Below are positions 33,301-61,509 of a stretch of 64,000 nt of DNA, piece after piece (position 1 is the stretch's first letter; the number at the start of each line of letters is the position of its first letter). The stretch is taken from the NCBI GenBank assembly GCA_965263035.1, contig OZ253580.1:1760001-1824000 (forward strand). The letters run 5' to 3'. Made by a program: the position numbers and the translations under genes. Origin of the DNA: Acidobacteriota bacterium. Lineage in GTDB: Bacteria > Acidobacteriota > UBA6911 > RPQK01 > JAJDTT01. The notes beneath the pieces were generated by a model. That model ran no database searches. It saw only the letters and a program-made list of their open reading frames with translations, and was not told the DNA's origin.

Positions 33301-33330
33301 CTAGGAGGGTGTTGTCGAGAAGGGTGGACA

Positions 33331-42555: not shown

Positions 42556-42611
42556 GGTAGTGTCCTCATTTTCTTGGCGGCCAGCTCAATCCTGGCAGAA
42601 AGAGGGGAGAA

Positions 42612-42680
42612 TGCGGGGGTTTGTAACCCCCGATTCCGGGTCGCCGATGAAGAGGGGGACAGGAATGTCCCCCCTCCTGG
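42612..42680. repeat. REP-like palindromes
   Basis: gggggtttgtaaccccc and gagggggacaggaatgtcccccctc hairpins in intergenic DNA. Confidence 0.5.
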
Positions 42681-42761
42681 AGTGCCCCATGTTTCTCTCC
42701 GGACTCTGCCGGGGTGCCAGCCGGTGGGGAAACGTCTATCTGATACGAGCGTCGTCCAAGA

Positions 42762-43137
42762 CTACACGTCCACCCGGACGTGCTTCATGGCCTCGTAGGC
42801 CGGAGACGGCTTGCCCTGTACGTGGAGGAAGGGGTATCGGTAGTCCTCCTCTCCCACCCAGCGGGAGTCGCCGGTCATGAAAATCACGGTGTAGGCGCGC
42901 CGGGAATGCGGGCTCCGGTTGGGCTCGCTCCGGTGGTAGGTCAGCCAATGGTGGAATCTCACGCTTCCTTTGCTCAGCTCCACCGGAATCTCACCTCCCA
43001 AATTGCTCAGAGCCTCCTGGGTCAGCTTCCACGTATTCCCGGGCACTTTCGAATGCTCGTGATCGAGCAGGCCCAACTTGTGGCTCTCGGGGATCACGGT
43101 GAGGCTTCCGTTCTCGCGGGTCGCATCCTCCAACGCG
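42762..43137 (-). pseudogene. 3' half of a phytanoyl-CoA dioxygenase (PhyH) gene, duplicate of the 3' part of 61551..62312
   Basis: ALEDATRENG...HRSEPNRS...YEAMKHVRVDV is nearly identical to the intact copy; the HxD-containing N-terminal half is missing. Confidence 0.9.
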
Positions 43138-43213
43138 CAGCTGATGGTGACTGTCACCTGCTTGCTGGTGGTTACCCGGTCGCCTTCTATCATGATCACC
43201 CGCTCCCTTCTTT

Positions 43214-44383
43214 TCATGCGTTCTGAAGCAACATCGCCAGCTCGGAGACGCTGATCGCCTCAACGCCTTCGGTGACCGGGAAGCGCTCGTCGCCGGAATG
43301 CGCGACGAACGCATGGGCCGGCCTCAGGTCCGCGCGGGCGTTGTGGAAGCCGCGGTCCAGTCTCGGGGCGCGGCCCCGCTTGATCTCTATCGCCCACAGT
43401 TCGCCGTTCGGCAACTGAAGCGCGAGATCGACCTCGGCGCCAGCGGAAGTGCGGTAAAAACTGGCTGTCGTCCGTTCCGGGGCGGCCGCGAGCAGATTCT
43501 CTATCACATATCCTTCCCAACTGGCGCCGGCCACAGGATGGCCGGCCAGCGCATTGAAATCGCCAATGCCGAGCAGAGCGTGCAGCAGGCCGCTGTCGCG
43601 TATGTAGATCTTCGGCGATTTCACAAGCCTTTTCCCGACATTGGCGTGAAAAGGAGCCAGGCGCCGCACCAGCAGCAGATCGGTCAAGAGTCCGATATAG
43701 CGATTCACGGTTTGCACGCTCACACCCAATGACGAAGCCAGCCGGGAGGCATTCAACAGGCCTCCCTGGCTGTGGGCCAGCATGATCCAAAGGCGTTCCA
43801 GCGTTTCCGCGGGGAGGCGGGGCCCGAACAAGGCGACGTCGCGCTCCAGGTAAGTCCGGATAAAGTCCTTGCGAAGAAGAAAGCTACGCCTTCCGTCAAC
43901 GGCCAGAAAGCTGTCCGGGAAGCCGCCCCGCACCCAGAGCCGGGTGGGCGTGTCACTACCGCCCGCCACCTCGAGGAGGTGGAACGGCTGCATGTCAATA
44001 TAGGCGATCCGGCCGGCAAGGCTCTCGCTGGACTGGCGCAACAGATCCATCGACGCGGAGCCGAGGATCAGGAATCGTCCGGTCCGTTTTCCTCGCCGCC
44101 GGCCGCTGTCGATGACCCCTCGAAGATCCTGAAACAGGCCGGGAACTCTGTGGATTTCATCGAGAATCACGAGGCGTTTTTCGTAATGGCTCAGGAACAG
44201 CGCCGGGTCGCTCAGCTTCTGCCGATCGGTTCGGTCTTCGAGGTCGAGATATAGGGCTCCGCGCTCTTCGCCGATATCCAGCGCGAGCGTCGTCTTGCCA
44301 GCTTGGCGCGGGCCGATAATGGCCACCGCTGCCTGGTAACCAAGCGCCTCAAGAACGCGGGGCTTGATGTGCCGCTCTATCAT
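43214..44383 (-). CDS. AAA+ ATP-binding protein (AAA_14 + DUF4143-type)
   Basis: GPRQAGKTT, ILDEIH, LGSAS, ESLAGR, RGGFP, KSPKIYIRDSGL, EVD...AIEIK. Confidence 0.93.
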   Translation of the reverse strand: MIERHIKPRVLEALGYQAAVAIIGPRQAGKTTLALDIGEERGALYLDLEDRTDRQKLSDPALFLSHYEKRLVILDEIHRVPGLFQDLRGVIDSGRRRGKRTGRFLILGSASMDLLRQSSESLAGRIAYIDMQPFHLLEVAGGSDTPTRLWVRGGFPDSFLAVDGRRSFLLRKDFIRTYLERDVALFGPRLPAETLERLWIMLAHSQGGLLNASRLASSLGVSVQTVNRYIGLLTDLLLVRRLAPFHANVGKRLVKSPKIYIRDSGLLHALLGIGDFNALAGHPVAGASWEGYVIENLLAAAPERTTASFYRTSAGAEVDLALQLPNGELWAIEIKRGRAPRLDRGFHNARADLRPAHAFVAHSGDERFPVTEGVEAISVSELAMLLQNA

Positions 44384-44520
44384 CCTTGTATATTATCCAT
44401 AGAATGGACAATTAACAAGGATAGAATCCACTCCGAGGAAAGAAGCCGTCTATGTATTCCACAGGAACAAGAATACCTCCGCTCGTGGGCGCGTGGGCGG
44501 GTCCGGCACGCGTTCCCGAC

Positions 44521-44631
44521 TTACCCGTCCACCTGGACGTGCTTCATGGCCTCGTGGGCCGGAGACGGCTTCCCCTGAACGTGCAGGAAGGGGTACCGGT
44601 AGTCCTCCTCCCCCACCCAGCAGAACTCGCC
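44521..44631 (-). repeat. Third copy of the PhyH 3' tip (about 110 bp)
   Basis: Matches 61551..61661 and 42762..42872 (ggacgtgcttcatggcctcg...gtagtcctcctcccccaccca). Confidence 0.9.
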
Positions 44632-44779
44632 ATTTTATCAGCGGGGCGCTCGAAGAACCCAACGTCTTCGGGACCCTGGGCCAACTGACCAGGTCGTTTT
44701 GGCGCGCCGTCACTGACAAGTGGGTAGCCAGACCGATTGTCTGGCTCCGAAACCCCGTGCTTGGGGGAAGGTTCATGCT

Positions 44780-47700
44780 TCAACCCAAGATCATTCCGTC
44801 GATGACCGATGCGATCACCGCTGCATCCAACCCCCCGCCCGGCTCGTCCCGAGTTTCGATCAGCGTTCCTTCCAGGCCTCCGCCGTCCTCGTGAGGCCGA
44901 ATTCCGCAGTCCAGGTACTCGGCACGCTTCCGCTCCCATCGGGCTCTGTACCCTTGGTCGTCGAGCATGCCGAGATGCTCCCAATAGAAGGTCACGCCCC
45001 GCGCGTGATCCGCGATCGTGAAATCCGGGTAGCGGGTGCGACCATTGGCCAGCACGAGAGGCTGCTCGTAGGCGTAGTCGATCCCGCGCGCGTAAAGCTT
45101 GTCGGCAATCACCAGCTCGGACTTTGAGCGCACGAGATCACCGCGCTCGGTTCGATGAATGAGCCCTTCCTCGAGGAAGCGCTGCTGGGCGTTGACGGTT
45201 ACTTCGCGCGGCCGCGGATCCGCGAAGAGGTTCGTCATGCGCCGGGCGATCTCCGAGTGCTCGTCGCCTGCATAGCGGCGATACTCGACAAGTGGGCCTT
45301 CGTGCAGGATGACCAGCCGGTCCTGGTGGCGGGTCAGCGCCGTGTACAAGAGCTCGCGGGAGAGCAGCCAGCAGGGGTTGGTGAGTACGACGAAGGTGAC
45401 GCCGAACTCGCTGCCCTGGGTCTTGTGCACCGTCAGGCAGTAGGCCAGCTCGAGCGGGTTGCGGCCTTCGTCTCCGAACTCGCCGGGGTAGAACCGGTAC
45501 TTGGGGCCTAGTTGCCCGGCGAACTCGACCTCGAGCTTCCACGGCATGCCCCTGAACTTCTTCGTCTTGTACTCCCCGACGATGATGCCGATGTCGCCGT
45601 TGGCGAGGTAGGCCTCCCCAGCGGGCTTCGGCCAGACGTCGCGCCCGCGCTGGTTGATGACATTGATGACCTTGTCGCCGTAGAGGAGCATCTGCGGGCC
45701 GACGGGACGCGGCACCTTGCGACCCCAGCCCTCCGCCTCGGCAAGCTCCCGCGCCTCCGCCCGGAACCGCCTTTGGAGCATGCGGTTCAGCGCGTCCACC
45801 CCCACGAGGCCGGCGCGCAGAGGCGAGAGCATCTGCCACGCTTCCGCCCGCGCGGCGGCTCCCGGGTTGTCGCCGAAGCGGTTCCAGAAGAAGGCCCACG
45901 GGATACCCCCGTGACGGGCGCCGCCCAGCGATTCCTCGAAGCCCAGTTCGTCGTCCGGCCCGGCGAGACCGAGCGCCTCGACGAGTTCCGCGACGAGCTT
46001 CTCCTGAAGCTCCTGCGGGTGGTTCCACCGCACGAGCCGGAGGCGTCCGTCTTTTCCTTCCTGTCCCTCGTCCAACACGGCGTCTGCGCCAGGATCGAGC
46101 GGCCGTCCGCTGAAGTGCGATGCCAGGAGCACGTCGGCCCGGGACTCGCCCTGCTGGCGTCGCGGGATCGTGAGCCCGGCATAGCTCGGCCCGTAGCGCG
46201 GAAAGAGCGTCTCGACATTCTCGGGCTCGAGCTCTCGAACGATGTCCACGAACGGGCGACCGGCCCCAATCGGCGGGAGCTGGCGCGGGTCCCCGACGAG
46301 CACAAGCCGCTCGACGTTGCTGAGCGAGTCGATCAGCGCCGCGAGCTGCTCTTCGGTGAGCATCGAGCACTCGTCCACGATCACGGTCCGGTAGTCGCCA
46401 CAGCGAGGCGCCCTGAGCTTGGGAAAGTAGGCGCCGGTCTCCCCGTCGTAACGTTGCTGCCGGATCAGAAACTGCGCCAGCGTCCGGCCGGCACCCCGCC
46501 TGCCGGTCTGCTCTTCCAGGCGCACACGGGCCTTGCCCGTGGGTGCCAGGAGCAGCAACCCCTTCTCGGCGAGACCGGGAAGCGAGCAGAGCATCCGCAG
46601 CAGCGTCGTCTTGCCCGTCCCGGCCGGGCCGATCAGCACGGAGAGCCGCGAGCGGAAGAGCTGCTCGAGCGCCGCCGCCTTCTCGCGCCGCGCGCGCTCC
46701 TCCAGCTCGCGCTCTTCCGGATCCGTAGGCAGCGCCTCATCGATCCCTGCGTCCACGAGCCCACGCCAGTCGAGTTCGGCCACGTGCGGCTTCCCCTTCT
46801 TCCGGCCGAGCACTTCGCGGCGGATGATCGTACGGCACTCGATGAGCCGGTCCACCTGGTAGGCAGGCTCGTCCTGACGGGTTGCCGCGCACGCGACGAC
46901 CGGCGCGAAGCTCTCCTCGCAGGCGTCGAGCACGTTCTCGCCGAGCGGGCACGGCGGCTGGAGCGCTCGCTCCCGCGCCCTGCGGATGACCCAGCTCCGA
47001 GGGAGCAGCGTGTGGCCCTCGGCCGCTGCGTGCTCCAGGAGGTCCGCGACCAGTGCACGTACACGCCGTTCGTCGGCCGGGTCTTCGATGCGGCTCGGCT
47101 CCAACACTGGGAACTGCTCCCGCACTGCCTCGTCCGGGAACAGGCCCCGGTCCACCGCGCCAAAGGCAATCGGGTCGGCGGCGCGCCGGTCGTGCTCAAA
47201 GAGGAGGTAGGGATTGCGCAGCAGCTCGGCGTCGCTAGCCTCGATGCCGGCCTGCGCCCGTGCTGTGGTGTCGTAGAAGCGTAGCGCCTGATCCTCCGAG
47301 ATGGCGCAGCGGCCGAGGAGTTGGAGCAGGGCCCGCCGCTCGTCGGTTAGGCGCTTCCAGCCCTTGCGCAGCCCGTCCGTGAGGAGCTTTGCCACGGGAC
47401 CACCAAGCTTCGCGGGATCATCCATCACGGCGTCCACGAGCGCCCACGGATCGCCGCCGCCCTCGCGCTCGCGCTCGCGCAGCAGTTCGATCTCGTACGC
47501 GAGCAGGCTCCCGTGCTGGAAGCCCCACTCGTAGCCGAACGCCGAAAGCGCCGAGCCGAGGCCGGGGAACGCACCGCGCGCCCTCCACAGGCGGTTGAGC
47601 TGCGTATCGATCCAGGCGAGCACCTCAACCCACGGTCCCTCGATCCGGCCGCGCACCCGGTGCAACGTCGCGGCGCAGGCCACGAGGGAGGCCACGGCGC

Positions 47701-48601
47701 CATCGTGGGTCAGGAGTTCCGAGCCGTAGGAGTAGGCGTCGAAGTGCTCGTCCGGGGCGAAGGCCACGAACTCCTCGGGGTCGACCCCCTCGCGTTCGGC
47801 GAGCGCCAGCGCTTCCTGGTAGGGAAAGAGGAAGCCGTCCGCGAAGCCGGGCCGGACCGAATGGCCCACGTTGCACTCCCAGAGCACGCACCGAAGCGGC
47901 GGGTTCTTGACCTTGTATGCGTATTCGGTGGCCTCGCCGACGGAGAGCACCCGGCCCACGCCGACGATCACGCGCCGGGACTGCTCGGAGAGCGGGGTGC
48001 GCTTGGCATAGAAAAAGCAGAGCGACTCCTCTGGCCGGAGCGCGCCGAAGAAGGTGTCGAGCAGAGCGAGCTGGTTCTCGCGCTCCTGGACCCAGGCCGT
48101 CTCGACCTGCTTTCCGCCGCGGCTGCGGATGTCGGGCTCGCCGTCTGGCACCCAGCGGATCTTCAGGCGCTCGGCGATCCCGATCTCACCGTTCTTTGCG
48201 TTCCCCTCGACCTTCTCGCGAAGCATCCAGCGGAACGGAACGCAGGCAGCAGAGTAGGGCGATTGCACAAAGCGGGTGGGTGCGAAGTGGCCGTGGGTCT
48301 TGGGGTAGAACTCCGTGTACGGGTGGGTCATCGTCCGGGTGAGCGAGAAGGGCGCCATGAACGAGACGCGCTCGCCCACGCAGGGTGGCAGGTCGGCGTG
48401 GTCGAGCTCGTCGAGCCGCTGACCCGCGCAACGCGCCTCCACGTCGTCGCGCCGGCCTTCGCCGATGCGGGGAAGGACGAGGCAACTCGAGTTGTCCAGC
48501 GGCCGGGCACACACCGTCCCGGACCAGCCCCCGTCGTGCCACGGGACGCGGATGGTGACATGGTGGGGCGGAAGGCGGCGGGCGCCGGCGAAGCTTGTCA
48601 T
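44780..48601 (-). CDS. RecD-like SF1 helicase with Cys/His-rich N-terminal domain and C-terminal PD-(D/E)XK/Vsr-like nuclease
   Basis: GPAGTGKTT, APTGKA, IVDECSM, VGDPRQLPPIG, AYCLTVHKTQGSE, LLYTALTR; C-terminal RSKSE...YEQP...PDFTI...WEHLG. ATGA overlap with the RT stop. Confidence 0.9.
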   Translation of the reverse strand: MTSFAGARRLPPHHVTIRVPWHDGGWSGTVCARPLDNSSCLVLPRIGEGRRDDVEARCAGQRLDELDHADLPPCVGERVSFMAPFSLTRTMTHPYTEFYPKTHGHFAPTRFVQSPYSAACVPFRWMLREKVEGNAKNGEIGIAERLKIRWVPDGEPDIRSRGGKQVETAWVQERENQLALLDTFFGALRPEESLCFFYAKRTPLSEQSRRVIVGVGRVLSVGEATEYAYKVKNPPLRCVLWECNVGHSVRPGFADGFLFPYQEALALAEREGVDPEEFVAFAPDEHFDAYSYGSELLTHDGAVASLVACAATLHRVRGRIEGPWVEVLAWIDTQLNRLWRARGAFPGLGSALSAFGYEWGFQHGSLLAYEIELLREREREGGGDPWALVDAVMDDPAKLGGPVAKLLTDGLRKGWKRLTDERRALLQLLGRCAISEDQALRFYDTTARAQAGIEASDAELLRNPYLLFEHDRRAADPIAFGAVDRGLFPDEAVREQFPVLEPSRIEDPADERRVRALVADLLEHAAAEGHTLLPRSWVIRRARERALQPPCPLGENVLDACEESFAPVVACAATRQDEPAYQVDRLIECRTIIRREVLGRKKGKPHVAELDWRGLVDAGIDEALPTDPEERELEERARREKAAALEQLFRSRLSVLIGPAGTGKTTLLRMLCSLPGLAEKGLLLLAPTGKARVRLEEQTGRRGAGRTLAQFLIRQQRYDGETGAYFPKLRAPRCGDYRTVIVDECSMLTEEQLAALIDSLSNVERLVLVGDPRQLPPIGAGRPFVDIVRELEPENVETLFPRYGPSYAGLTIPRRQQGESRADVLLASHFSGRPLDPGADAVLDEGQEGKDGRLRLVRWNHPQELQEKLVAELVEALGLAGPDDELGFEESLGGARHGGIPWAFFWNRFGDNPGAAARAEAWQMLSPLRAGLVGVDALNRMLQRRFRAEARELAEAEGWGRKVPRPVGPQMLLYGDKVINVINQRGRDVWPKPAGEAYLANGDIGIIVGEYKTKKFRGMPWKLEVEFAGQLGPKYRFYPGEFGDEGRNPLELAYCLTVHKTQGSEFGVTFVVLTNPCWLLSRELLYTALTRHQDRLVILHEGPLVEYRRYAGDEHSEIARRMTNLFADPRPREVTVNAQQRFLEEGLIHRTERGDLVRSKSELVIADKLYARGIDYAYEQPLVLANGRTRYPDFTIADHARGVTFYWEHLGMLDDQGYRARWERKRAEYLDCGIRPHEDGGGLEGTLIETRDEPGGGLDAAVIASVIDGMILG

Positions 48602-51600
48602 AACCAACCTCCCTGCGCTGCCGTTTTCAGACCTGCGGGGGGATGCTTCCAGCCGTCGGCATTGGCTCCCGAGATGTCGTGGCGCTCCAGGAACCCGCCG
48701 ATGTCGTCGATTTCGAGGAACGTGATCGAGGCCTGCTGTCCGTGGGTGTGGAAGATCTGCCTAATGTGAGCATCGCTCCTCGGCCAGTAGGCGTTGCTGC
48801 CGCCGTACTGCCCGTTGTTGGCGACGACCACGAGTTGGAACATGTGATAGTGCAGCGCCAACGCCATCTGGTCGAACGTCTTAACGTCTTTGTTGAGCGC
48901 CGGGATCGCCAAGATATCTGACTCATCCCTGAGATCCGCAGCGAGGCCGAGATCCGTCGCATCATAGCAGACGGTCGCAGTCAGCCATAAGGGGCGGTCA
49001 CCGTCCGCGTCAGACCACGGATAGCCGATCAACCACTGGCAGGGCCGGAATCCCTGAAGAACGTGCGCCCCACCACCGTTGAACGCTTGCTCATTCGGGG
49101 CGAGGTGAGCCTTACCTTGACGGCGAGTCTTGATCTGCAGCCCGTAGGCGTCCGACCACTCCGGCATGACCCACAGGGCTGAGTTGACGAGCGGTTGCCC
49201 CGCTAGAATCTCTTCGTAGGTCAGCCCGGCGAGGATCATCGCCCTGTGAGCCCGTGCGAAAGGGACCAGATGAGTACGAACGTCCTTCGGATGGACGGCA
49301 AGCTCGGGCAGAATCAGCCAATCGAGCCGCCCTTCGCTCCCCTTGTGCGTCTCTCTCAACGCCAGCATGCGTTCCACGGCTGCGAGCGCTGCCGACAGGT
49401 GATTGCGGTGTCTTCGCCGAATTGCGGACTCGTTGAGTGCTAGGTCTGTGTGCTGCAAGTCACCGGTCGCCGGGATCGCTGTCTGGACCACGCAGGCACG
49501 CAGCGGCCTCGGCGTGTTCGTCGCTGTCGGTCGCCGGACCAGCAGCGGCAGGATCAGTGCGCGGGTAGCGCTACCTCGGCGCTGCTCGAGATCGGCGATC
49601 CTCTGGCCAATCTGCGTCCTCGCCTCTTGGATGCCCTGCTCGACCCAGCCGAACCCATCCGGAGCACGGCACCCCGGCCAGCGCAGGAGGCCCAGGAGGA
49701 GTCCTTCTACCCAGTCCGTGATCGGAAGCCAGTCGTCTCCGAAGGCCGGCTGCCCGCTATACAGGCCGTACAGGCGCTGGTACCAGTGGCTCTCGGCAGG
49801 GCGATAGAAAGACTCAGTCTCTTTCCAATGTCTCCTGCGGACGGGACGCGTGAAATCCGGCTGCCCCGACAGGATGAACCGGAGCAGAAAACCGAGTTGG
49901 AAGCGCCACCCCTCGCCGGCTTCACACCACGCGGGCACCTCGTATGGGGAGCCCGATGCGTCGGCCCGACTCCCCAGGATCCGCAGCGTTTCTACGTCAG
50001 CGACCGCCCGGTCCTCGCCGAGCTTCAGCGTGACCTGGCCTGGGGTGATCACCTCGGGCGGAAGCTTCTGCTGCTCCCACTGTTCGAGGAAAGCCCTCGC
50101 GAAGCGCAGAAGGGAGAGCTCGTTGCGAAGAGAACCGCTCGGGTGCGTATTCAGGACCGCCTTGGCCAGCGTGTCGTGGCCGCCGTCAGCCCCCTCCGGA
50201 GCCCGGCAAAGGTCCTCGCGGATGCGCGCCGGAAGGTCGTTGAAGAGAAGAGTATCCGTCGCGGTGTCGATGATCTCGAGAAGAAACGACGGGTCCCTCT
50301 GAGCGAGCTGCCGCCTCCTTGACGGACTGAGGCCGGGCCGCGTCAACTCAACCGCCCGCGCTCGATCCAAGAACGCACGTCTGGCGAGAACCGCGAGCGT
50401 CGCAAAATCCGAACTCCGGAGGCGGTCTCCGTCACCGCGCAGGAATCGGATCAGCTCCCGGTAATGCCGGGTCTCCGGTACCGTTCCCGTGCGCACGACG
50501 GGCGCCCCGACGGGATCGCAGACGGCGAGGAACAACAGCGCCTGCTGTCGTAGGTACCAAGGAATCGTCGGCCCGGGCAGGGCCACCAGGCGAGCGGCCT
50601 CCCCGCGAAGCTCCTCGCGGTAGGATTCGAGGTCGATCCCCAAGGGGAGCGATTCGGTGTCCGCCACGAGCGCCGTTTCCGTGGCTCCCGCGCGCAAGAC
50701 TTCAGCGAGGCAGTACCAAGCGACTCGCCTCGGCGCCTTTCGCCGCCCCCCCTTTTCCGTGAAAGGGCGGAGCAGTGAGAGAACTTCCCGCAACAACTCC
50801 ACATCCGGCCAGAGATCGAGGCCAATCCGAAGCAGGCGAACGTTCGATGGGTCGTCGATCCACCGTTGAATCAGACCCAGCGCAAACGCCCTCGCATCCT
50901 CGTCCAGCTCGCGCCGTGTACGCGCCACGCGCGGTCGCCCACCGGGCGGGGTATCGCCTCTACCAACCTCAGACTCGTCCGGCGTGTCGTCGTCTTGGAG
51001 CAGCGGCCTGATGGAACGGAACGTGGTTCGATATCGGGCAGCGCCGAATCTGGCGACCGTCTCGTCCCGAACGTCCGGGACCGGGGAAAACCGCCAGCCA
51101 CTGTCGTCCCCCACGCTCAGGGCTTCCTGCGCGCGCATCAGGCCCTGGATGGCATCGAGGATCTCCTCGCCGCCGAGCGCGTCGAATCCCCCCGACACCG
51201 CCGACTGGATGCGGTTCATCTTCGCGCTCTGCCGCACCAACGGTCGTTCGTCGCCCCCTAGCGCTGCGACTTGGCTCTTCTCGGGGGACAGCACGAGGCC
51301 GGTCGCATTCTCTTCCAGAACCTGACTTAGCCATCTCGAGACGGTCTTCTCAAGGTCATTCGACGAGCCATCCGACTTCGGGGCAACCGCAACCAGGATC
51401 CGCAAGTCGTCGACGTACCGGCACGAGTCCGCCACCCGGATTCCGGGGGCGATCTCCGTCCCGATCGCCACGCGCAGCACCTCGTCGAACGAAAGGAGCA
51501 CGACGTTCGCGAAGAAGCCGGAGGCGACGAGTCCCTGTGGCAATGCCACCCGCGTGAAGTCGTCCAACTCCGCCTGCTCTGCGTACATCTTGACATTTTT

Positions 51601-52356
51601 TTCGTCACGCGGATGCCAGCCCCAATTGAGCACGGACGCCGCCAGAGAAAAAAACGCCGGGTCATCGCCGTCGCGGCGGATCCGGTCGAGCGCTCCGGCA
51701 AGCAGATCCGGGCGCACGCGGTCGTAGAATTGCCGAATGTCCGCATGGACGACGTAGACGCGCTTTCCATCGGCTGCCGGAATCGACTCGGCCGCGACTT
51801 CCGGCCGGGAGAGGAACGCGCGGTAGTCCTGGTAGTAGGCGCGGTAGAGCTTGGCGGATCCCCACCGATGGCGCAGTTCGCCATATATCGCGTCGCAGAA
51901 CAGCCGGTTGCCATAGGAGACCACCTGCCTTCGCGACTCCTGATCACGTACCGGCTGTCGCGGATCCCCTTGCAGCGTCTCGACACGGTCGGCGAGACAG
52001 AGCATCAGCGCCGTCGCCACCACCTGGTCGGCCAAGCTGACGTGAGCGAGCGGTCGAAGCCGTGCCGAGCGCGCCCCCTTGACGGGCTCCCACACGCCTT
52101 CCTGCACTCGCCAGCGCTGGCTCTTGGGCGCCGGAACGATGCGTAGAGGATCGTTCTGCCAGCTCTCCAAAGACTGCAGGCGTTCGCCGAGTTCGCTGAG
52201 AAACGCCGGCAGGTTCACGGCCGCGCGGTCGAGAGCAAGCGTGTCGGAGAACCAGTTGTGGTAGCGGATGTAGGACGCGGTCTTCTTCCAGGCCTGAACG
52301 AGGACGTACTCCTCGCGGAGCAACTCCAAGCGCGGTTTGAGCTGCTCCTGAACCAT
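48598..52356 (-). CDS. Reverse transcriptase fused to a C-terminal nitrilase (carbon-nitrogen hydrolase) domain; UG1/DRT1-like defence-associated RT
   Basis: RT motifs LRPL, ADIRQFYD, LPQGLVASGFFAN, RYVDD; nitrilase triad ILPEL (E), QGK (K), VCYD (C), plus VANNGQYGGS. Confidence 0.88.
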   Translation of the reverse strand: MVQEQLKPRLELLREEYVLVQAWKKTASYIRYHNWFSDTLALDRAAVNLPAFLSELGERLQSLESWQNDPLRIVPAPKSQRWRVQEGVWEPVKGARSARLRPLAHVSLADQVVATALMLCLADRVETLQGDPRQPVRDQESRRQVVSYGNRLFCDAIYGELRHRWGSAKLYRAYYQDYRAFLSRPEVAAESIPAADGKRVYVVHADIRQFYDRVRPDLLAGALDRIRRDGDDPAFFSLAASVLNWGWHPRDEKNVKMYAEQAELDDFTRVALPQGLVASGFFANVVLLSFDEVLRVAIGTEIAPGIRVADSCRYVDDLRILVAVAPKSDGSSNDLEKTVSRWLSQVLEENATGLVLSPEKSQVAALGGDERPLVRQSAKMNRIQSAVSGGFDALGGEEILDAIQGLMRAQEALSVGDDSGWRFSPVPDVRDETVARFGAARYRTTFRSIRPLLQDDDTPDESEVGRGDTPPGGRPRVARTRRELDEDARAFALGLIQRWIDDPSNVRLLRIGLDLWPDVELLREVLSLLRPFTEKGGRRKAPRRVAWYCLAEVLRAGATETALVADTESLPLGIDLESYREELRGEAARLVALPGPTIPWYLRQQALLFLAVCDPVGAPVVRTGTVPETRHYRELIRFLRGDGDRLRSSDFATLAVLARRAFLDRARAVELTRPGLSPSRRRQLAQRDPSFLLEIIDTATDTLLFNDLPARIREDLCRAPEGADGGHDTLAKAVLNTHPSGSLRNELSLLRFARAFLEQWEQQKLPPEVITPGQVTLKLGEDRAVADVETLRILGSRADASGSPYEVPAWCEAGEGWRFQLGFLLRFILSGQPDFTRPVRRRHWKETESFYRPAESHWYQRLYGLYSGQPAFGDDWLPITDWVEGLLLGLLRWPGCRAPDGFGWVEQGIQEARTQIGQRIADLEQRRGSATRALILPLLVRRPTATNTPRPLRACVVQTAIPATGDLQHTDLALNESAIRRRHRNHLSAALAAVERMLALRETHKGSEGRLDWLILPELAVHPKDVRTHLVPFARAHRAMILAGLTYEEILAGQPLVNSALWVMPEWSDAYGLQIKTRRQGKAHLAPNEQAFNGGGAHVLQGFRPCQWLIGYPWSDADGDRPLWLTATVCYDATDLGLAADLRDESDILAIPALNKDVKTFDQMALALHYHMFQLVVVANNGQYGGSNAYWPRSDAHIRQIFHTHGQQASITFLEIDDIGGFLERHDISGANADGWKHPPAGLKTAAQGGWL

Positions 52357-53675
52357 ACCTCAGCCCCCCAGCACCTCGACCAGTTCCGCGATCACCTGCA
52401 ACTGGCCTTCGTCCGCGCTGGTGAGCACGATCGGCTCGAAGTCCGGGTTGACGGGGTTGAGGGTGATCTCGACGTGACGCCAGGAGTCTCCCTCCTTCGC
52501 CTTCTTGCTCTTGTAGCGCTTGACCGTGTAGCGCTGTCCGGTCTCCGGGTCGGTGGCTTCACGAAGCTGGACGAGGACGATCTTGCCCTGGCGCGTACCC
52601 TCGACAGGACCTCGAAAGAGGCACCAGGCACCGTCGCGAATCGCGGGCTCCATGGACTTGCCGACGACCTGGGCGACGAACATGCCCTTTCGCAGACGAT
52701 GGCGGGACTTGAGAGCGACCCACTCGAAGTCGTCGTCTTCGATGTGCTGCGGATCGCTGAAGGTGCCGGCGGCCACCCTAAGCGGGATGAGCGGCACGCA
52801 GGTGACGTAACGGTCCTCGGGTGCGGGCCCGACCGTAGGCGGCCGAAACGGGACCACCTTCGCCGTCCCCTCTGATGCCGCATCCGCCTCCGACACGCCC
52901 TGGAACGCGTCGGGCCAGCCGCCATGGGCTTCGATGACCTCGTCGATCTCGGACATGATGCGGACGGTCTCATTCAGGGCGACGACGATCTTCTGGTAGT
53001 GGGCGATGTCTTCATCCGAGAGCGTGCGGCCCTTCCGGTCCTTGAGCCACTTGTGGCAGACCTGGTAGCCGCCGATTTGGAAATCCCAGACCTCCCCGGG
53101 CACACCCCTGAAACCCATCGTGCCGGGCTTCGTCGCGTGGTGCCCCTCGCGCGCAATGGTCTTGCCCGCGTCGATCCACACGGTGCCGTCCGACCAGCCC
53201 GCGCGTCCGACTTCTGGGAGCTTTGGGCCGGTGTATGTCGTGATGGGCTTACCGAGTTCCGGAGACTCGAGCAGGTGGAGGGCCAGCACGTCATGGCCGA
53301 TCTCTGCCAGCCCTCGGAAAAGGTCGACGCTTCCGGGCAGAGGTACGCGGGGGAAGTCGAACTTGAGCTGGGCCTCATAGCGGCTCCGATAGCCGGGGCT
53401 GTGGAACACCGTGTAGATGTAGGCGAAGACGTCCTCGGGGCCGAAGGTCTTCCAGAGATCGCCCCGGCCGTCGCTGACGAATCGCAGTTCGGTGGCGGCC
53501 GCAATCTGCTCGACGAACCCCGAGTCCAGATTCGGAGTGCGGCCGTCCTTGCCCTTTGTCCAGCGGTTGAATAGCGAATCGTCGGCCCTGCCGACTCCGG
53601 GATAGAGGTAGAGCGGAAAGAGTGAGTTGACGTCGTAGGCCGAGCAGGTCTTGTGCGCAATAATGCTCGATGTCG

Positions 53676-54764
53676 CTAGTGTGGTGTCCTGGAAATACGA
53701 GTAGATAATCGTGCTAGCTTGTCCAGGATGGATTGGGCTGTGGCGGCCCACACGAAGGGTTTCGCCTCTTGGTTGTATCGATGGGTGAATTCCTCAATCG
53801 TCTTCACCAAGTGTCTCACGTTGCGGAACGAGGTGCGCTTGATCGCTCGCTGTGTGATCAAACCGAACCAGCGCTCCACTTGGTTGAGCCAGGAGGCGTA
53901 GGTGGGGGTGAAGTGTAAGTGGTAGCGTGGCCGCTTGGCAATCCAGGCCCGGACCCGTGGATGCTTGTGCGTGGCATAGTTGTCGACGACCAAGTGGAGG
54001 TCCAGATCGGGCGGCACTTCCCGGTCGATCAACCTCAGAAAGGCCAGGAAGTCCTGGTGGCGGTGGCGCTTCTTGCATTGAGCGATCACGCGACCCGTGG
54101 CGGCATCCAGGGCCGCGAAAAGGGTGGTGGTGCCGTGGCGGATGTAATCGTGCGTATATCCTTGAACGTACCCGAGACCCAGGGGCAGGGCCCGTTGGGT
54201 CCGGTCCAGGGCCTGGATTTGAGACTTCTCGTCGACGCACAGCACCATGGCGTGGTCGGGGGGATGGAGGTAAAGTCCCACGATATCTCGGACCTTCTCG
54301 ATGAAGAAGGGGTCGTTGGAGAGCTTGAAGGTCTGGGCCAGATGAGGCTTGATGCCAAAAAGCGAGAACCAGCGCTGCACGGTGGTCTTGGAGACGCCCT
54401 CGGCGGCGCCCATCAAGCGCACGCTCCAGTTCTCGGCGTTGGCCGGCTTCTGCTGCAGAGCGCGGCTGATCACCTGGGCGACCTTCTCGTCGTCGTAGCT
54501 GCGGGGACGACCGGGACGAAGCTCGTCATGCAAGCCCTGAACGCCGAGTTCGAGGAAGCGTCGACGCCACTTGCCGACGGCTTGGGGCGAAGCCCCGACC
54601 CGTTCGGCCACTGCCCGGTTGGTGAGGCCCTCGGCACTGGCCAGGATCATGCGGGCTCGCAGGACCAAGCCGTGAGGCAGACTGGTGGAACGGGCGACTC
54701 CCTGGAGTTGATGTCGCTGCTCGTCGCTGAGTACCAAGGGGGGAAGTTTGCGTCCGCGGGGCAT
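53676..54764 (-). CDS. IS630-family transposase
   Basis: [54 protein letters not shown]. Confidence 0.97.
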
Positions 54765-54831
54765 AGGCAGTCTCCTTTCTGAATGAGGAACCGCCTATTA
54801 TTATACACGAACTAACGGGACACTACACTAG
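53676..54831 (-). mobile_element. IS630-family insertion sequence (coordinates include both CTAG)
   Basis: TIRs ctagtgtggtgtcc / ggacactacactag with a duplicated (C)TA(G) target. Confidence 0.93.
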
Positions 54832-57511
54832 CGCGCCCCACTTATCTCTCGTCTGCCTCGTTGTGATTAGGCCGACGTTCTCCCCCGCGAGCATGTGCCG
54901 CATAATCTGCTTTACAGTTCGCCACACCAGCGAATCGTGATAGAAAATCAAGCGTTGGTCGAAGGGGCGATAGAGAACCGGCTTGATGTGTTCTCCCAAC
55001 TCCCTTTCACCTCCAATCAGTTTTCTCGCGTTGGGTATGTTCCACCCCTTCTTCAGCGGAATCCCCAGTCGGCGGCACAGTTCCTCATCAGAGTCTTTCG
55101 AATCGCGAAACTCACGTGCCCGCTCGAGCAATGGTGCTTCAGCGAAGTCAATCACTACATGGTCCCGTGCCGTCGTCATTCCAACACCATTCACCGGCAT
55201 CACTTCGGTGATTATCCAGCCCTGTTCGTATTCGGCTTTCAGTTCGGTGTCTTGCGGCACGAACAGGTAGAATGGCCGCTGTGGTCGCAGCACCATCCAT
55301 TCCGTGCTACCAGCATCGGTCGAGAGGAGCGTTTCGTACTTGCTCTCCCGCAGCTCCCACAGGTCGGCATGATGTAACTTGGCTGTGCTCCTCTTCCCCG
55401 CCTTATTTATAAAGAGTCCGAGCGCCACCCCCTGCTGGATGTCGAAGACGTTTTCATCTTTGCCTCCGTCCGGCGCGCGTTCCTGCTTCTTCGAGTTTCC
55501 GTGAAGGTCGAGCAGGAAGAGCTGATCGAACGTCGCAAGCAGTGCCCGCCGCACTCCTCGGAAAGTCGGGCTGTCAACATAGCTGTGGTTCGTGATGAAG
55601 CCATGAATGCCGGCACCAGCCCGCTCAAGTAGCCATTGTGAAAATCGCGTGAAGCGGACGTAGAGATCGTTCAGCCACTTCGGGTTGCGCTCATTCAGCG
55701 GCTCACCGTCTACCTCGAAGTAGCTCAACGTGCTTCGGCCACTCTGGAGTTCCTGACCGCGCATGAGCGCTGCGATCCAGTCCCCACCGCGACCTGCTTC
55801 GCCAAGGTACGGCGGATTCCCGATCACCACCGTGAACCGTTGATTCCGCTTGATCTCGTTGACCGCTTGGGCCTCGTGCGCCAGGGCCGGCAGGAAATCC
55901 AGGGTGAGCTGCCTACTTCCCGCCGGCTCCAGCGCGTTCGTCAGGTACACACGCGCCCGCTCGTCGCTCCCGAAGCGGTAGCCGGTCTCGTAGAGCTTGA
56001 GGCCGATCTTGAGGTGCGCGATGGCGTAGGGCGCCATTAAGAACTCGTATCCGTGCAGGCGCAACAGGAGGTGTTCCGGGACGTAGTGGTTCCAGAGCGC
56101 CTCGATCTTTTTCTCGCCGTGGCCCTGAGCCTTCCACTCCTCGACCATCGTCTTGTGGATAAGGTCGATTACCTCGACGAGGAACGTGCCGGTGCCGGTG
56201 GCGGGGTCGAGGATCTGGACGAAAGCCTGGTCGGGCGGCGTGCCGTTGGGGATCTCGAGATCTTCGTGCCGTTTCGCCATCTCGCCCCAGGTCGTTGTGT
56301 CGGCGAGGCCGTCAGTGAGGCCGAAATCGCTCCGCAAGAGCTGGTCCACCGAGCGCACGATGTAGGAGACCACCGGGCGTGGAGTGTAGAAGACGCCCCG
56401 GCTCACCTTCTGCTTCTTGTCGTAGGCGGCGAGGAAGTGCTCGTAGAAGTGGATGACCGGGTCTTCCCGGGGGTTCCGGTCGCCGAAGTCGAGGACGACG
56501 GCCTCCATATTAGCCTGGTCGAGTAGCTCCACCACCTCGGAGACGCCCAGCTCGTCGAAGTCGATGCCTAGCCCACCGGCCTTCCCGCGGCGCCCTCCCG
56601 CGTGAAGGAAGGTCTCCATCAACTCCTTCAGAAACGGGTTCGTCCGCATGTAGGCGGCGAGGTCGTCGGCTGTGCGCCGCGCCGGGTCGGTGATGCGCGC
56701 GGACAGCAGCCCGTATGCGAGGGTCTGGGCGTACATATCGGCGAAACCGTCCTCGTCCAGGTCGTGGACGAGCGCGGTCTGGAAAGCCTTCATAAGCTTG
56801 GTGAGCGGCCCGGACTCGGTCTCGATGGGGAGCGCCGTCCGGATGCGGTCGCGGATGGCGCGGGCGAGCTTCGCCAAGCGCTCCGAGAGCTGCTTTGAGG
56901 TGCTGATGACCTCGCGGTGGCGCAGTGTGAAGGCGGCGCGCCAGCGCTCGCGCCAAGCGTCGGGGTCGCCCTCGTCGTCGGGCCAGGCGAGGTGCGTGGT
57001 CAGCTCGCTAGCGACGGCGTCAAGGTGGAGCGGCGTGTCGAAGTTGTCCCAGCCGAGCACCTTGAGGGTGGGCAGGTCGTGGCCGTCCCGGGGCTTCGAG
57101 AAGTGCGCGAAGACAATGCGCCGCTCCTCGCCCTCACCGTAGTTGGAGACGAAGAGCAGGTCGTCGGCGGCCCAGGCCTGGCGCTCGGACTTGTTGGCCG
57201 AGGCGCGCTCCTTGAGCGCCACCTGGCCGAGGATGCGGCGCAGCGCCACCACGGGCAGGCGCTTCGGCTCGAACTTGACGAAGAAGATGCCCCAGGGCTG
57301 GCCCGTCGCGAGTGGGCGCAGGCGCTTGATCTCCTGGATCTTGGCCGCGTTCTTCGCGTCGATCCCGAGCTCCTCGGGGGTATAGTCGAAGGTCATTTCT
57401 TCGAAGTCGTCCGAGTCGATCGGCCAGCCGAGCTCGTCGCGGAGGTAGGCGACGAGTTGGTCGAAACGGCGGATGCATGCGAGGCGCTCCCGGTGGTTGG
57501 TCGGCATCGGT

Positions 57512-60500
57512 TCAGCCCTCGTTCAGCTCCATCCAGCAGCGAAGCCGCGGCTTGACGCCGACGGGGGCGTCCACGCGCTTCAGGTAGCTGTTCTTGATGT
57601 GCTTCTCGATCCGCTTGCGGATGTCGAGGAGCGTCTTCTCCTCCATGGTGCAGCGCCGGGGCGTCTCGGGCTTCGAGCGGATGCTCGCGACGATCTCGCC
57701 CGGCTCCTCGAGGATGGTTTCGCGGTCGAGGTCGTAGAAGTACCAGCGGGTGGTGCCGGCCTCCTCGGTGAACTCGTTCTTCTCCTTGTCGAGGGCGGGG
57801 AGCGCGTAGCAGAAGAAGACACCGCGCATGCCCTTCGCCGGGCGCTTGCGGCCGCTGAAGATCGCGCCGGGGAAGCGAGCGAGGCGCGCCTCCAGCTCGG
57901 GGTCGGCCTGGAGCAGCGCCTGGTACTCGAGATGCATGTCCTCCACGGCCGTGCGCGTGCCCTCGTAGGCGTGGTGAAACTCCTTCAGCGCCTCGTAATC
58001 GTCCTCCGGGGTGAGGAGCTTCTTGCCCTCGATGCCGAGGGTCTTGGAGATCAGGAGCGTCTTCTGCGTGACCTTCGTGTAGAGCGAGAGGATCTCGTTC
58101 AGCTCCTGAGGCGGGAGAAAGTTCCAGAACCAGACCCTGCCGCGCGAGGCGGCCGCCTCGGGATGGTCGGCGACGAGCCGCTTCTCGATTGCGGGATTCA
58201 TGCGGCGGTCCACCCGGCCGATGCGCTGCATGAGGCGCACCGGGTTCCAGTGGATGTCGTAATTGATCATCCGCGAGGCGTCCTGGAGGTTGAGACCCTC
58301 GGAGAGGACATCGGTGGAGATCAGGACGCGGGTCTCCTCGCTGCCCCGCTCGGCGAGCTCCGGGGACGAGCGGCCATTGTAGTAGGGCGCGAAGCGCTGG
58401 ATGACCTCTGAACGGTTCTTCTTCGTGGCACTGTCCACCTGCTCGACGCCCTCGATACCGGCCTCGTCCAGTTGACGCTTGAGGTAGCGGGCAGTGTCGG
58501 CGAACTCGGTGAAGATCAGAATCTTCTGGTCGGCCAGCGCCTTTGACTTGAGCAGGCGGATGAGCTTCTGGAGCTTGTCGTCGTGCTTCGGCTCGAACTT
58601 CCGGGCCTCGGCCAGGAACCGAACGATCTGGTCGAGGTCGAGGAAGGTCTCGGCCATCATCTCCTTGACGTCGTACGCGGCACGGTCGAGGCGCTCGACC
58701 GCCTCGAGCATCTCCTGGGGGACGACGTCATCATCGTCTGCCTCCTTGCCTTCCTCGCCCCAGAGCTCGAACTGGCGCTGGACGGCGCAGCCCAGGATGT
58801 CGGCGTTCTGCGCTTTCCACCTCTTGAGGCGCTTCTTCTCGGCGTCGCTCTCGCTGTGGACCTCGATGAAGGCCAGCAGCTTCTTGAGCAGGCGGTCGCA
58901 AGAGAGTTCGAAGGCGGCGACGGAACTCTCGAAGCGCTTGAGAAAGTTGGTCCGGATGAGGCCGATCACCTGTCTCTGGCGGTTCTCCTCGAACGGGTCG
59001 ATGTCCTTGTCCGGCCCCCTGTACCAAAACAGGGGGTAGTACATCGGGAGCGTGAAGAGCGGGCTCTGCTTGGCGAAAGCATTCTCGAACAGCTCGAGCA
59101 TCCGCCCGTAGGTCTTGCGGATCGAGTACGCTGCTACCTGAGGGTCCCTCCGGTCGGGAAAGGCAGCTGCTTTGCCGTACTCCCGAATCTGGCTCTCGCG
59201 GGCGTAAGCGCGGCTCCGCTGGACGACGAGCTCGCGGAAGAATGCGTCGGTGAAGAGGATCTCCTGGGCTTCGATCATGTGCTCCGCAGCATCCGCCACG
59301 TCCTGTCCCAAACGGCTGCGAAGCATCCTTTCCATCTGGCTGAAGTGCGCCCTCAGGTTGTTCACGCCGATCGTGCGCGCGAAGTAGGACTCGTCACGAC
59401 GCGTGAAGAGCTCGGTCATGTGGCGGAAGTCGCTCAGACGGTTGTTGATGGGGGTGGCCGTCAGCATGAACACGGTCTTGGGGCGTTCCGCGTTGTCGAG
59501 TAGCTCGAACAGGCGGTAGTAGCGCGACGGTTCGATTCCCCTGTCGGGATCACGCCGGCGGCCCGGATTGCGGAAGTGGTGTGCCTCGTCGATGACAACG
59601 ATGTCGGCGAGTTCCGCAATGCGCTGGAAACGCTGCGGGAAGTCCCCCTTTCGTCCGAGGTCGGTGTGGCTGAAGACGGCCAGGTTGCTGAAGTCCCCGC
59701 CACCGCCGACGCCGCCGATGTGCGGAAGCCACTGACGCAGGTGGGGCTCCCATACCCCCTCCTTGGCCCCCTTCGGTGCGAACAGCGCAACACGCTTGCC
59801 CTCGTGAAGGATGAGCCGCTCGATCAGCATCAGACCGACGAAGGTCTTGCCAAGACCCACGCCGTCACAGAGGAACGCACCGCGGTGCTGCCGGGCGATC
59901 TTCATGAGCGCCCAATACGCCTCCTTCTGATATCGATCGAGGTGCGGGAACATGCGCGACCGTGTCTCGTCCCACTCGGTCGCGGTCAGCTCGTGCCCCC
60001 GGAAGAACTGCTGCAGGGCCTTCGCGTAGACGTCGAATGGCGAATACGGGTGCGTATGGCGCGAGATCGTCTCGATGACGGCCTCGGTAACCCCGCTCGC
60101 TTCGTTCCAGTGCGTCTCGAACCACTCCTGGAGCTGCGCGACTTCGCGTGAGCTCTGGATCTGGACGTTCAACTCGATGTTCTTCGTGAGACCCGGACGC
60201 GTGAAGTTGCTGGAGCCCACCAGCGCCTGGGAACCCACTACCTCAAGCTTTGCGTGGGTGATGTAGGCCTTGGCGTGGAATTTGGCCTTGTCGTAGACAC
60301 GGCATTCGATCTTCCCGGAGCGGAGCGCGTCGAGGATCGCAGAGACCCCGTGCAGGAAGGGGTTCGGCTCCTTGTCCTCCTCGATGCTTTCGTCGAGCCT
60401 ATCGAGCGCTTGCGCCCGAACCGCTTCGAGAATGGCCTTTCGAGTCCGATGGGTGGTCTCCGCCCCCATCAGGATCCGGATCTTGTCGAGCCCCTGCCAT

Positions 60501-60661
60501 CTGCCGTCGAGGGTGAGCAGAGCGCCGATCTCGAAGTATCCGGTCGCGATGTCGAACGCCTTCGCGATGCTGGACCACTCCTCCAAGTACCGGAGCCCGG
60601 TCCAGCCGGAGACACTGTTGTCGACGATAAAGAGCTCGTGGCCCTTGGAGTCAGCGGTCAT
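57512..60661 (-). CDS. SNF2-family helicase with N-terminal PLD nuclease domain
   Basis: IATGYF, HAKAY...GSSNFT (PLD), DGVGLGKT, IDEAHHFRN, LTATPINN, KRFESS, IFTEFADT, SEGLNLQ, WNP.RL.QRIGRVDR. Confidence 0.93.
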   Translation of the reverse strand: MTADSKGHELFIVDNSVSGWTGLRYLEEWSSIAKAFDIATGYFEIGALLTLDGRWQGLDKIRILMGAETTHRTRKAILEAVRAQALDRLDESIEEDKEPNPFLHGVSAILDALRSGKIECRVYDKAKFHAKAYITHAKLEVVGSQALVGSSNFTRPGLTKNIELNVQIQSSREVAQLQEWFETHWNEASGVTEAVIETISRHTHPYSPFDVYAKALQQFFRGHELTATEWDETRSRMFPHLDRYQKEAYWALMKIARQHRGAFLCDGVGLGKTFVGLMLIERLILHEGKRVALFAPKGAKEGVWEPHLRQWLPHIGGVGGGGDFSNLAVFSHTDLGRKGDFPQRFQRIAELADIVVIDEAHHFRNPGRRRDPDRGIEPSRYYRLFELLDNAERPKTVFMLTATPINNRLSDFRHMTELFTRRDESYFARTIGVNNLRAHFSQMERMLRSRLGQDVADAAEHMIEAQEILFTDAFFRELVVQRSRAYARESQIREYGKAAAFPDRRDPQVAAYSIRKTYGRMLELFENAFAKQSPLFTLPMYYPLFWYRGPDKDIDPFEENRQRQVIGLIRTNFLKRFESSVAAFELSCDRLLKKLLAFIEVHSESDAEKKRLKRWKAQNADILGCAVQRQFELWGEEGKEADDDDVVPQEMLEAVERLDRAAYDVKEMMAETFLDLDQIVRFLAEARKFEPKHDDKLQKLIRLLKSKALADQKILIFTEFADTARYLKRQLDEAGIEGVEQVDSATKKNRSEVIQRFAPYYNGRSSPELAERGSEETRVLISTDVLSEGLNLQDASRMINYDIHWNPVRLMQRIGRVDRRMNPAIEKRLVADHPEAAASRGRVWFWNFLPPQELNEILSLYTKVTQKTLLISKTLGIEGKKLLTPEDDYEALKEFHHAYEGTRTAVEDMHLEYQALLQADPELEARLARFPGAIFSGRKRPAKGMRGVFFCYALPALDKEKNEFTEEAGTTRWYFYDLDRETILEEPGEIVASIRSKPETPRRCTMEEKTLLDIRKRIEKHIKNSYLKRVDAPVGVKPRLRCWMELNEG

Positions 60662-60864
60662 GATGCTCCCTGCCGGTCCGCAAAGCGCATTGCGACCATC
60701 TGCGTGCCAGCAGCGTCCTTCTTGCCCTTCAGACCCACACCGGCACGTTCGGGATCTTGCTTGATACGGACACAATTACCGGGATCGACAATCACGGCGA
60801 CATTCCGAATCAAGGTCAGTCGGTCCTCCAACGGGTTAAAGTCTCTCGTCGTTTTGTCGCCCAT
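60658..60864 (-). CDS. Small ORF translationally coupled to the helicase gene (may be a remnant)
   Basis: 68 aa; its TGA overlaps the helicase ATG (ATGA). Confidence 0.35.
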   Translation of the reverse strand: MGDKTTRDFNPLEDRLTLIRNVAVIVDPGNCVRIKQDPERAGVGLKGKKDAAGTQMVAMRFADRQGAS

Positions 60865-60946
60865 AAAGCAGAGTACTGTGGCTTGAAAGTTTTCACCCAG
60901 AAATTCGCAAGCAGTTGTTAAATAGGGACTTAGGAGGTATTCTCAA

Positions 60947-61375: not shown

Positions 61376-61384
61376 CGGGGGGGG

Positions 61385-61509
61385 CTGTAGGCGAGGCGCA
61401 TCTCTTGTATGGAGGGCTCGTCGGCGGGGCGGTCGGGGGCGGAATTATCGGCTATCAGTTGGGAAAGAGCCGGGACCGGGAAACCACCATCATCACGATT
61501 GTCGACTGA
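61385..61509 (+). pseudogene. 3' fragment of a third glycine-rich membrane protein paralog
   Basis: GGGIIGYQLGKSRDRETTIITIVD matches the end of 37935..38510 (GKRKDRETTIIKIVD). Confidence 0.75.

Follow-up and report, generated by a model that had tools for sequence, protein, structure and literature searches.

The RT-nitrilase gene and its junctions

The window analyzed here is a stretch of 64,000 nucleotides (nt) from contig OZ253580.1 of an Acidobacteriota bacterium. On its minus strand lies an operon in which drt1, a gene for a reverse transcriptase (RT) fused to a nitrilase domain, stands between the 3′ part of a methylase gene and the gene for a RecD-like helicase, P0002. The coordinates of the features are given in Table 1. 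An initial annotation had described the RT-nitrilase as a protein of 1252 amino acids (aa) with both active sites intact, and without an adjacent non-coding RNA (ncRNA) or transmembrane (TM) partner. We draw on two publications, Neville et al. 2026 (PMC13275509) and Mestre et al. 2022 (PMC9226505).

The product of drt1 matched the PADLOC profile of Drt1a (PDLC03745) with E=0 and 1243 bits, and the match extended over residues 3-1243 of the protein and positions 3-1176 of the 1176 in the profile. The remaining RT-group models of PADLOC scored at most 51 bits on this open reading frame (ORF). In the Pfam search, RVT_1 was detected at 27.2 bits, which is under its cut-off of 29.6, and no nitrilase family was detected at E<=0.01. 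The sole solved structure matched by sequence was PDB 9yfd_A (Defense-associated reverse transcriptase 1, DRT1; E=7.7e-118). The phmmer alignment consisted of two stretches, residues 5-614 against 10-601 and residues 820-1221 against 819-1207 of 9YFD. When the last 300 residues were searched alone, 9YFD was matched at E=5.7e-43 (aligned 9YFD residues 952-1207), and Cys1130 was placed opposite C1116. The PADLOC model RTasNitrilase matched the nitrilase part at 6e-57. On sequence similarity, we assign the product to DRT type 1 (UG1, class 3 of the UG/Abi RTs) as a full-length member.

Two other groups of RTs were compared. UG5-large (DRT5) also belongs to class 3 and also joins an RT to a C-N hydrolase. 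However, the RT_UG5-nitrilase model of PADLOC fits the window protein in the nitrilase part only (7.9e-30, residues 999-1215), whereas Drt1a fits it over the full length. Retrons, class 2 DRTs (DRT2 and DRT9) and group II intron RTs share with it an RT with a YxDD motif and a role in defence or in mobile elements; in contrast to them, the window RT has neither an ncRNA locus nor an intergenic space. With scores of at most 51 bits, no match among the curated families of Rfam and no intergenic space, the assignment to a group II intron, a retron or a class 2 DRT was dropped.

The domain order of the window protein (RT, alpha-helical repeat region, nitrilase) is that of 9YFD, and the lengths are similar (1252 and 1229 aa). 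The YVDD Asp-Asp pair, the Ser of the priming loop, the Glu/Lys/Cys triad and the K...A lid are common to both, and both lack drt1b and an ncRNA. The differences are that the priming loop reads S-G-G-F-D in the window protein and T-S-S-I-P in 9YFD, that the window copy is distant in sequence and comes from a high-GC environmental lineage, and that its gene is wedged between the methylase-S24 and PDC-S68 genes.

To assess conservation, the window protein was aligned with 49 intact relatives from 63 related loci; the other 14 were truncated or broken. In all 50 sequences, Y314, V315, D316 and D317, the LPQG motif, S388 within IQxAxSGGFD, and E1018, K1082 and C1130 were invariant. ADIRQFYD varied in part among the aligned relatives. 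In the lid motif W-K-x-P-P-A-G, P1240 was conserved in 50/50, and K1237 and A1241 were each conserved in 49/50, with the +4 spacing found in 9YFD. Since the printed 9YFD alignment ends before the lid segment, the lid match rests on this conserved spacing. Judged from these alignments, the residues that are essential in the solved DRT1 (the RT Asp-Asp, the priming Ser, the nitrilase Cys and the lid Lys/Ala) are all present.

At the upstream junction, the TGA of the methylase part is followed by 3 nt (GGT) and then by the RT ATG at 52356. At the downstream junction, the RT TGA overlaps the ATG of the helicase gene as ATGA at 48601-48598, and GGAGG is located 7 nt upstream. A search of Rfam, which covers curated RNA families only, gave no match at E<=1 in 42000-62000, and ARAGORN detected neither tRNA nor tmRNA in the window. 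When 8 proteins from around the RT were scanned with PADLOC, neither Drt1b nor a membrane-protein ORF was detected next to it. With only 3 nt to one neighbor and an overlap of 4 nt with the other, the RT gene leaves no space for an adjacent TM gene. A hidden Drt1b in the ORF at 44453-44776, the only small ORF nearby, was ruled out, as its reading is non-hydrophobic and of low complexity. In the relatives, 97 ORFs flanking the 63 loci were tested, and the Drt1b models matched none of them. The window RT thus differs from the two-gene form, drt1a with drt1b, in that it has no adjoining small TM gene. The lack of an ncRNA and of a TM partner is the norm of the family, because DRT1 synthesis is template-free and most drt1 genes occur without drt1b (PMC13275509).

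These results bear out the initial annotation in several respects. The ORF has exactly the coordinates, strand and ATG start given there. The RT motifs, the long helical middle region and the E-K-C triad are in place, with the domain order of 9YFD, and the protein stands apart from group II intron and retron RTs (at most 51 bits against 1243 for Drt1a). The neighbors do abut directly, no ncRNA was detected, and the two adjacent genes are the methylase part and PDC-S68 and not a TM partner.

Table 1. Features of the drt1 operon and its product (positions in the window; residue numbers refer to the drt1 product)
Feature	Position	Strand	Evidence or remark
PLD(HKD) nuclease + SNF2-type helicase, first operon gene	57512..60775	-	Pfam PLDc_2, ResIII, Helicase_C
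Methylase 5′ part (N6_Mtase/Eco57I-type, Type_ISP_C start)	54823..57507	-	REase_MTase_IIG PDLC03610, 4.4e-159
IS630-like element, ~1.16 kb	53674..54833	-	DDE_3 + HTH_23 (Pfam); transposase ORF 53676-54764
Methylase 3′ part: Type_ISP_C target recognition + C-terminal S24 peptidase	52360..53751	-	ends 3 nt before drt1
drt1 (Drt1a / UG1 RT-nitrilase), intact	48598..52356	-	ATG start, 1252 aa
RT palm/fingers core, residues 195-364	51265..51774	-	Pfam RVT_1 stretch
ADIRQFYD, residues 205-212	51721-51744	-	position checked
LPQG, residues 272-275	51532-51543	-	position checked
YVDD, residues 314-317	51406-51417	-	aligned to 9YFD YVDD
Ser388, likely protein-priming serine	51193..51195	-	motif I-Q-x-A-x-S-G-G-F-D
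Nitrilase (C-N hydrolase) domain, residues 955-1221	48694..49494	-	9YFD alignment
Glu1018	49303-49305	-	nitrilase triad
Lys1082	49111-49113	-	nitrilase triad
Cys1130	48967-48969	-	nitrilase triad, opposite C1116 of 9YFD
C-terminal lid K-H-P-P-A, Lys1237 to Ala1241	48634..48648	-	K1219...A1223 spacing of 9YFD
PDC-S68 candidate defence gene (P0002)	44780..48601	-	PADLOC PDLC05065 E=0, full length
AAA_14/DUF4143 ATPase, PADLOC candidate PDC-S01	43214-44383	-	just downstream of PDC-S68

The helicase gene and the distribution of DRT1 and PDC-S68

P0002 matches the PDC-S68 profile from end to end and contains an SF1B RecD-like motor (Pfam AAA_30, AAA_19 and UvrD_C_2), in which the motifs GPAGTGKT and DECSM were found. 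Its sequence matches in the PDB were RecD2, RecD and Dda (Dda at 1.6e-07). Residues 1-638 (window 46688-48601) open with an invariant Cys/His-rich start, R-V-P-W-H-D..G-W.G.V-C..P..N.S-C. For this N-terminal region, Pfam gave nothing better than E=0.12, and the AlphaFold2 model had a mean confidence score (pLDDT) of 53. For the C-terminal 175 aa, no Pfam family was detected at E<=1. The model of this part had a pLDDT of 81.6, and a Foldseek search with it against the PDB gave no match at E<=0.001. The top matches were weak (best E=3.7e-3) and were all of the PD-(D/E)xK type: Bax1, the R2 endonuclease domain, TnsA, McrC, DrdV, Vsr and Hjc. The label helicase-nuclease is plausible for PDC-S68, with its nuclease half leaning on these weak matches of a predicted model. 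PDC-S68 is a single-gene phage defence candidate that lies outside the definition of the DRT1 family. The term was not found in the literature searched, and a DRT1-helicase operon was described neither there nor in the available portion of PMC9226505. That portion reports a TM cluster with 33/175 UG1 genes and does not mention a helicase partner (Mestre et al. 2022).

The association of the two genes was analyzed from both sides. Labels of the form Lnnn denote loci of RT or helicase relatives from two scans. The RT genome scan yielded 63 loci with 49-88% identity, 58 of which were assessable (at least 300 nt downstream of the RT). For the helicase, the N-terminal region specific to PDC-S68 was aligned in a metagenome scan, and the best 80 of 545 relatives were taken; 75 were assessable (at least 300 nt upstream). 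Both samples are skewed to close relatives of the window.

A full-length PDC-S68 gene was located directly 3′ of the RT on the same strand in 11/58 loci (L003, L004, L005, L010, L011, L012, L021, L026, L027, L034 and L036). In 6/58, only a truncated remnant was found there (L001, L002, L014, L028, L033 and L063), and PDC-S68 was absent from this position in 41/58. At L006, the start of a PDC-S68 gene is visible at the contig end. Seen from the helicase, DRT1 was directly 5′ in 3/75 loci (L073, L085 and L086). A restriction module without DRT1 held this position in 12/75 (L067, L075, L076, L077, L081, L083, L088, L091, L093, L095, L098 and L118). For helicases with neither of the two, there were 37 upstream ORFs; 12 shorter than 125 aa and 2 near-duplicates were left out. 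Ten of the 23 ORFs tested matched defence models, namely type III methylase, DrmMI, type IIG, NERD-UvrD and GajB-like models, with weaker matches to LmuB, PbeA and PD-T4-4_B.

Intact RTs were found beside truncated helicases (L001, L002, L028 and L033), and broken RTs beside intact helicases (L011 and L012). In the RT tree, the helicase-linked genes are confined to one half, where they are interspersed with unlinked ones; the other half contains a clade of 22 rows, mostly alphaproteobacterial, without a helicase link. The helicase tree contains pairs of near-identical helicases of which one has DRT1 and the other lacks it (L083/L085, L036/L091 and L034/L093). L093 and L034 are collinear with 74-84% DNA identity, but L093 has 25 nt where L034 has its RT gene (8005-11769). 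Similarly, the window is collinear with L067, L075 and L118, but 52900-48585 of the window (the S24 domain and drt1) corresponds to ~112 nt in them, an indel of 4.3 kb. At L085, ~75 nt of the S24 3′ end are present on both sides of DRT1 (1986-2060 and 5879-5953). These duplicates look like the footprint of a cassette insertion by recombination.

The two proteins also differ in how far they have diverged. Between L034 and the window, the identity is 73% for the RT and 50% for the helicase; between L034 and L036, it is 59% for the RT and 84% for the helicase. Adjacency was not reciprocally conserved, and RT and helicase did not diverge together. As far as sequences can tell, the shared gene order is genuine and goes back to the ancestor of part of the RT clade, but both genes have been gained, lost and exchanged independently. 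The pattern fits defence modules stacked in a shared operon, not an obligate pair.

The order of four genes (PLD-SNF2, methylase-S24, DRT1, PDC-S68) recurs in L004, L010, L011, L026, L034 and L036. RTs 79-88% identical to that of the window (L001-L016, L028 and L063) carry labels that span at least 7 phyla: Binatia, Gamma- and Alphaproteobacteria, Acidobacteriota, Thermodesulfobacteriota, Gemmatimonadota, Spirochaetia and Caldilineaceae. Since RTs at least 79% identical occur in at least 7 phyla, the package spreads horizontally, and the similarity points to its recent transfer between phyla.

DRT1 was also found in other settings. It is flanked by a type I S subunit gene and a type I methylase gene (L014), overlaps the end of the DISARM DrmMI gene (L030), stands behind BREX PglX (L058) or behind a prokaryotic Argonaute (pAgo, L049), and precedes a type IIG enzyme (L007). 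Relocated DRT1 is still preceded by the final 35-170 codons of S24 in L014, L020, L022, L033, L035 and L048. A DEDDh exonuclease gene stands directly 5′ of the RT in one DRT1 clade, that of Rhodobacteraceae/Hoeflea (L050:6552-7937, L054:6386-7780 and L057:6413-7834; RTasSbcB, E ~1e-174 to 1e-189), with a fragment of RTasSbcB at L046:7276-7782. DEDDh genes also flank DRT1 in L024 and L039. For this clade, the enzyme is a possible accessory exonuclease acting on single-stranded DNA (ssDNA). Several relatives have a broken drt1: L063:8001-12921 holds an IS630-like transposase within the RT span, L011:8001-13086 has an insertion of ~1.3 kb, the L012 copy runs over two frames, and an in-frame stop interrupts that of L014. 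By these comparative data, DRT1 acts as a gene-sized cassette that is gained and lost by methylase-based defence operons in many phyla.

Mode of action and alternative explanations

The solved DRT1 uses its own Ser402 as primer and builds A-rich ssDNA adducts there without a template (Neville et al. 2026, PMC13275509). The adducts drive the assembly of DRT1 tetramers and filaments, in which a domain-swapped C-terminal lid keeps the nitrilase shut (PMC13275509). D324/D325, S402, C1116, K1219 and A1223 are each needed for defence, and the mutants K1219A and A1223F abolish it (PMC13275509). T4 escapes by mutation of Dda, a 5′-3′ ssDNA helicase, which is needed for activation (PMC13275509). One gene is sufficient for DRT1 defence; drt1b, the TM gene, is found next to ~18% of drt1 genes, and the majority stand without it (PMC13275509). 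UG5-large (DRT5) RT-nitrilases are also template-free and protein-primed (PMC13275509), and UG5-large requires a TM partner according to Mestre et al. 2022 (PMC9226505).

If the window protein works like its solved homologue, its RT domain would polymerize without an RNA template. It would prime on its own serine, here Ser388, and extend it by a short ssDNA tail, A-rich and semirandom in sequence. This adduct would lead to tetramerization via the nitrilase domains and then to stacking into a dormant filament, in which the domain-swapped lid (K1237 to A1241) would close the nitrilase site. Phage infection, which in T4 acts via Dda, would free the nitrilase (Cys1130), and its chemistry would abort the infection. 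We infer these steps from the literature on the homologue; the present analysis shows the family membership, the genomic context, the intact catalytic, priming and lid residues, and that neither an RNA nor a TM partner is present.

The window gene very probably encodes an autonomous DRT type 1 abortive-infection enzyme, and DRT1 and PDC-S68 would be co-transcribed neighbors but separable modules. The gene is a well-conserved copy of a defence enzyme for which structure and mechanism have been known since 2026, and its apparent oddities are the norm of the family. The initial annotation had proposed that the RT is template-independent or protein-primed, and that its DNA product may be handled by the coupled RecD-like helicase-nuclease. 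The former agrees with published DRT1 (PMC13275509), and Ser388 and the RT Asp-Asp are invariant; such synthesis is already established for the family, so it is not new. The latter found no support in the form of a dedicated partnership, because adjacency is a minority in both directions (11/58 and 3/75), the indels of DRT1 are clean, the divergence of the two proteins is decoupled, and PDC-S68 also stands behind unrelated genes.

Several observations weigh against DRT1 as an autonomous, separable module. The ATGA stop/start overlap, with a good Shine-Dalgarno sequence, is kept in both diverged helicase groups. Adjacency, full or as a remnant, was found in 18/63 DRT1 loci, which is above the expectation for random neighbors, and an ssDNA helicase as neighbor is suggestive by analogy with the Dda requirement. 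The solved DRT1 is, by sequence identity, a distant relative, and only two stretches align. The HMMER pairwise alignment sets S402 of 9YFD two columns off, at G390, in a gapped loop; the equivalence of Ser388 with S402 is therefore approximate and is drawn from the invariant IQxAxSGGFD. Finally, the IS630 insertion upstream could cut the transcription of drt1 in the window genome.

One alternative is a functional two-gene variant, in which the host helicase-nuclease would load on or trim the ssDNA adduct as a counterpart of Dda, and would trigger release or keep the adducts short. In its favor, translational coupling by an ATGA or GTGA overlap is kept in the window and in L004, L011, L012, L021, L026, L027, L033, L034 and L036, two helicase clades with just ~50% identity to each other both retain the pair, and it occurs without a restriction module in L005, L021 and L027. 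T4 Dda, which is required for DRT1 activation (PMC13275509), belongs to the same superfamily as P0002 and is matched by it, as described above; another DRT1 clade has an ssDNA exonuclease-like gene, RTasSbcB, directly 5′ (L050, L054 and L057). If this variant were real, a host helicase coupled to DRT1 could stand in for Dda in cis, and the system could fire against phages that lack Dda or could reset filaments. However, DRT1 was present at only 3/75 helicase loci, 41/58 DRT1 loci have no helicase directly downstream, and RTs with full catalytic residues persist beside truncated helicases. Furthermore, DRT1 comes and goes as a clean indel without co-divergence, PDC-S68 stands behind many unrelated systems, and the characterized DRT1 defends alone (PMC13275509). 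We regard the two-gene variant as improbable. It is more improbable still, to the point of being very doubtful, that the whole operon of four genes is one machine, with the restriction-like genes sensing foreign DNA and DRT1 and the helicase-nuclease as effectors. The gene order and tight spacing are kept in L004, L010, L011, L026, L034 and L036 and partially in L001, L003, L009 and L063, and S24 3′ remnants accompany DRT1 in L014, L020, L022, L033, L035 and L048. Nevertheless, all sub-combinations occur (restriction module with helicase, restriction module with DRT1, DRT1 with helicase, and single genes), DRT1 is also found in type I, DISARM-like and BREX-like operons (L014, L030 and L058), and IS630 has cut the methylase gene of the window, whereas drt1 and its helicase neighbor are intact.

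That same insertion raises the question of a silent or decaying copy, in which IS630 in the second operon gene blocks drt1 transcription and the ORF is intact only through the recency of the insertion. The element with its terminal repeats does lie inside the methylase gene, the gap between methylase and drt1 is just 3 nt, and the promoter scan gave one site against a shuffled mean of 1.7. The package also decays in relatives, the RT being interrupted or broken in L011, L012, L014 and L063. Against this stand the full-length drt1 ORF with all key residues and the S24 3′ codons retained 5′ of relocated DRT1, which hint at a promoter or ribosome-binding site there. In addition, insertion sequences often carry outward promoters. 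We consider a silent copy unlikely.

The restriction module and the remainder of the window

The product of the first operon gene (57512..60775) matches the PADLOC model HKD+Snf2 (C3a139) at 8.7e-58. The product of 52360..53751 matches Type_ISP_C (1e-51) and Peptidase_S24 (9.4e-10) in Pfam and REase_MTase_IIG in PADLOC. The methylase is uninterrupted in relatives, where it is one ORF of 1305-1354 aa. In the window, the IS630-like element that splits it is bounded by 30-nt imperfect inverted repeats at 53674-53703 and 54804-54833. With its methylase split, the restriction module has probably been inactivated in the window, and drt1 and the helicase gene are intact. Inside the operon, a promoter and terminator scan gave nothing above the shuffled expectation (1 promoter-like site against a mean of 1.7).

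A LexA/UmuD-type S24 domain is fused to the C-terminus of the methylase/target-recognition protein (window 52360-52900, residues ~320-457 of the product of 52360..53751). This domain is missing in L067, L075 and L118, and is kept without DRT1 in L083, L088 and L093. Like Type ISP systems (LlaGI-type), the module has a nuclease, an SF2/SNF2-type motor, an N6-methylase and Type_ISP_C. It differs from them in that it is split over two genes, has a PLD/HKD nuclease and an extra S24 domain, and is broken by IS630.

The candidate gene PDC-S01, on the other side of PDC-S68, extends the defence island. Elsewhere in the window, a possible prophage remnant was observed at 27389-34539, and metabolic genes lie between it and the defence operon. 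Its ORF at 27389-28849 has a weak match to the nuclease of the terminase large subunit, and 33484-34539 encodes a tyrosine integrase.

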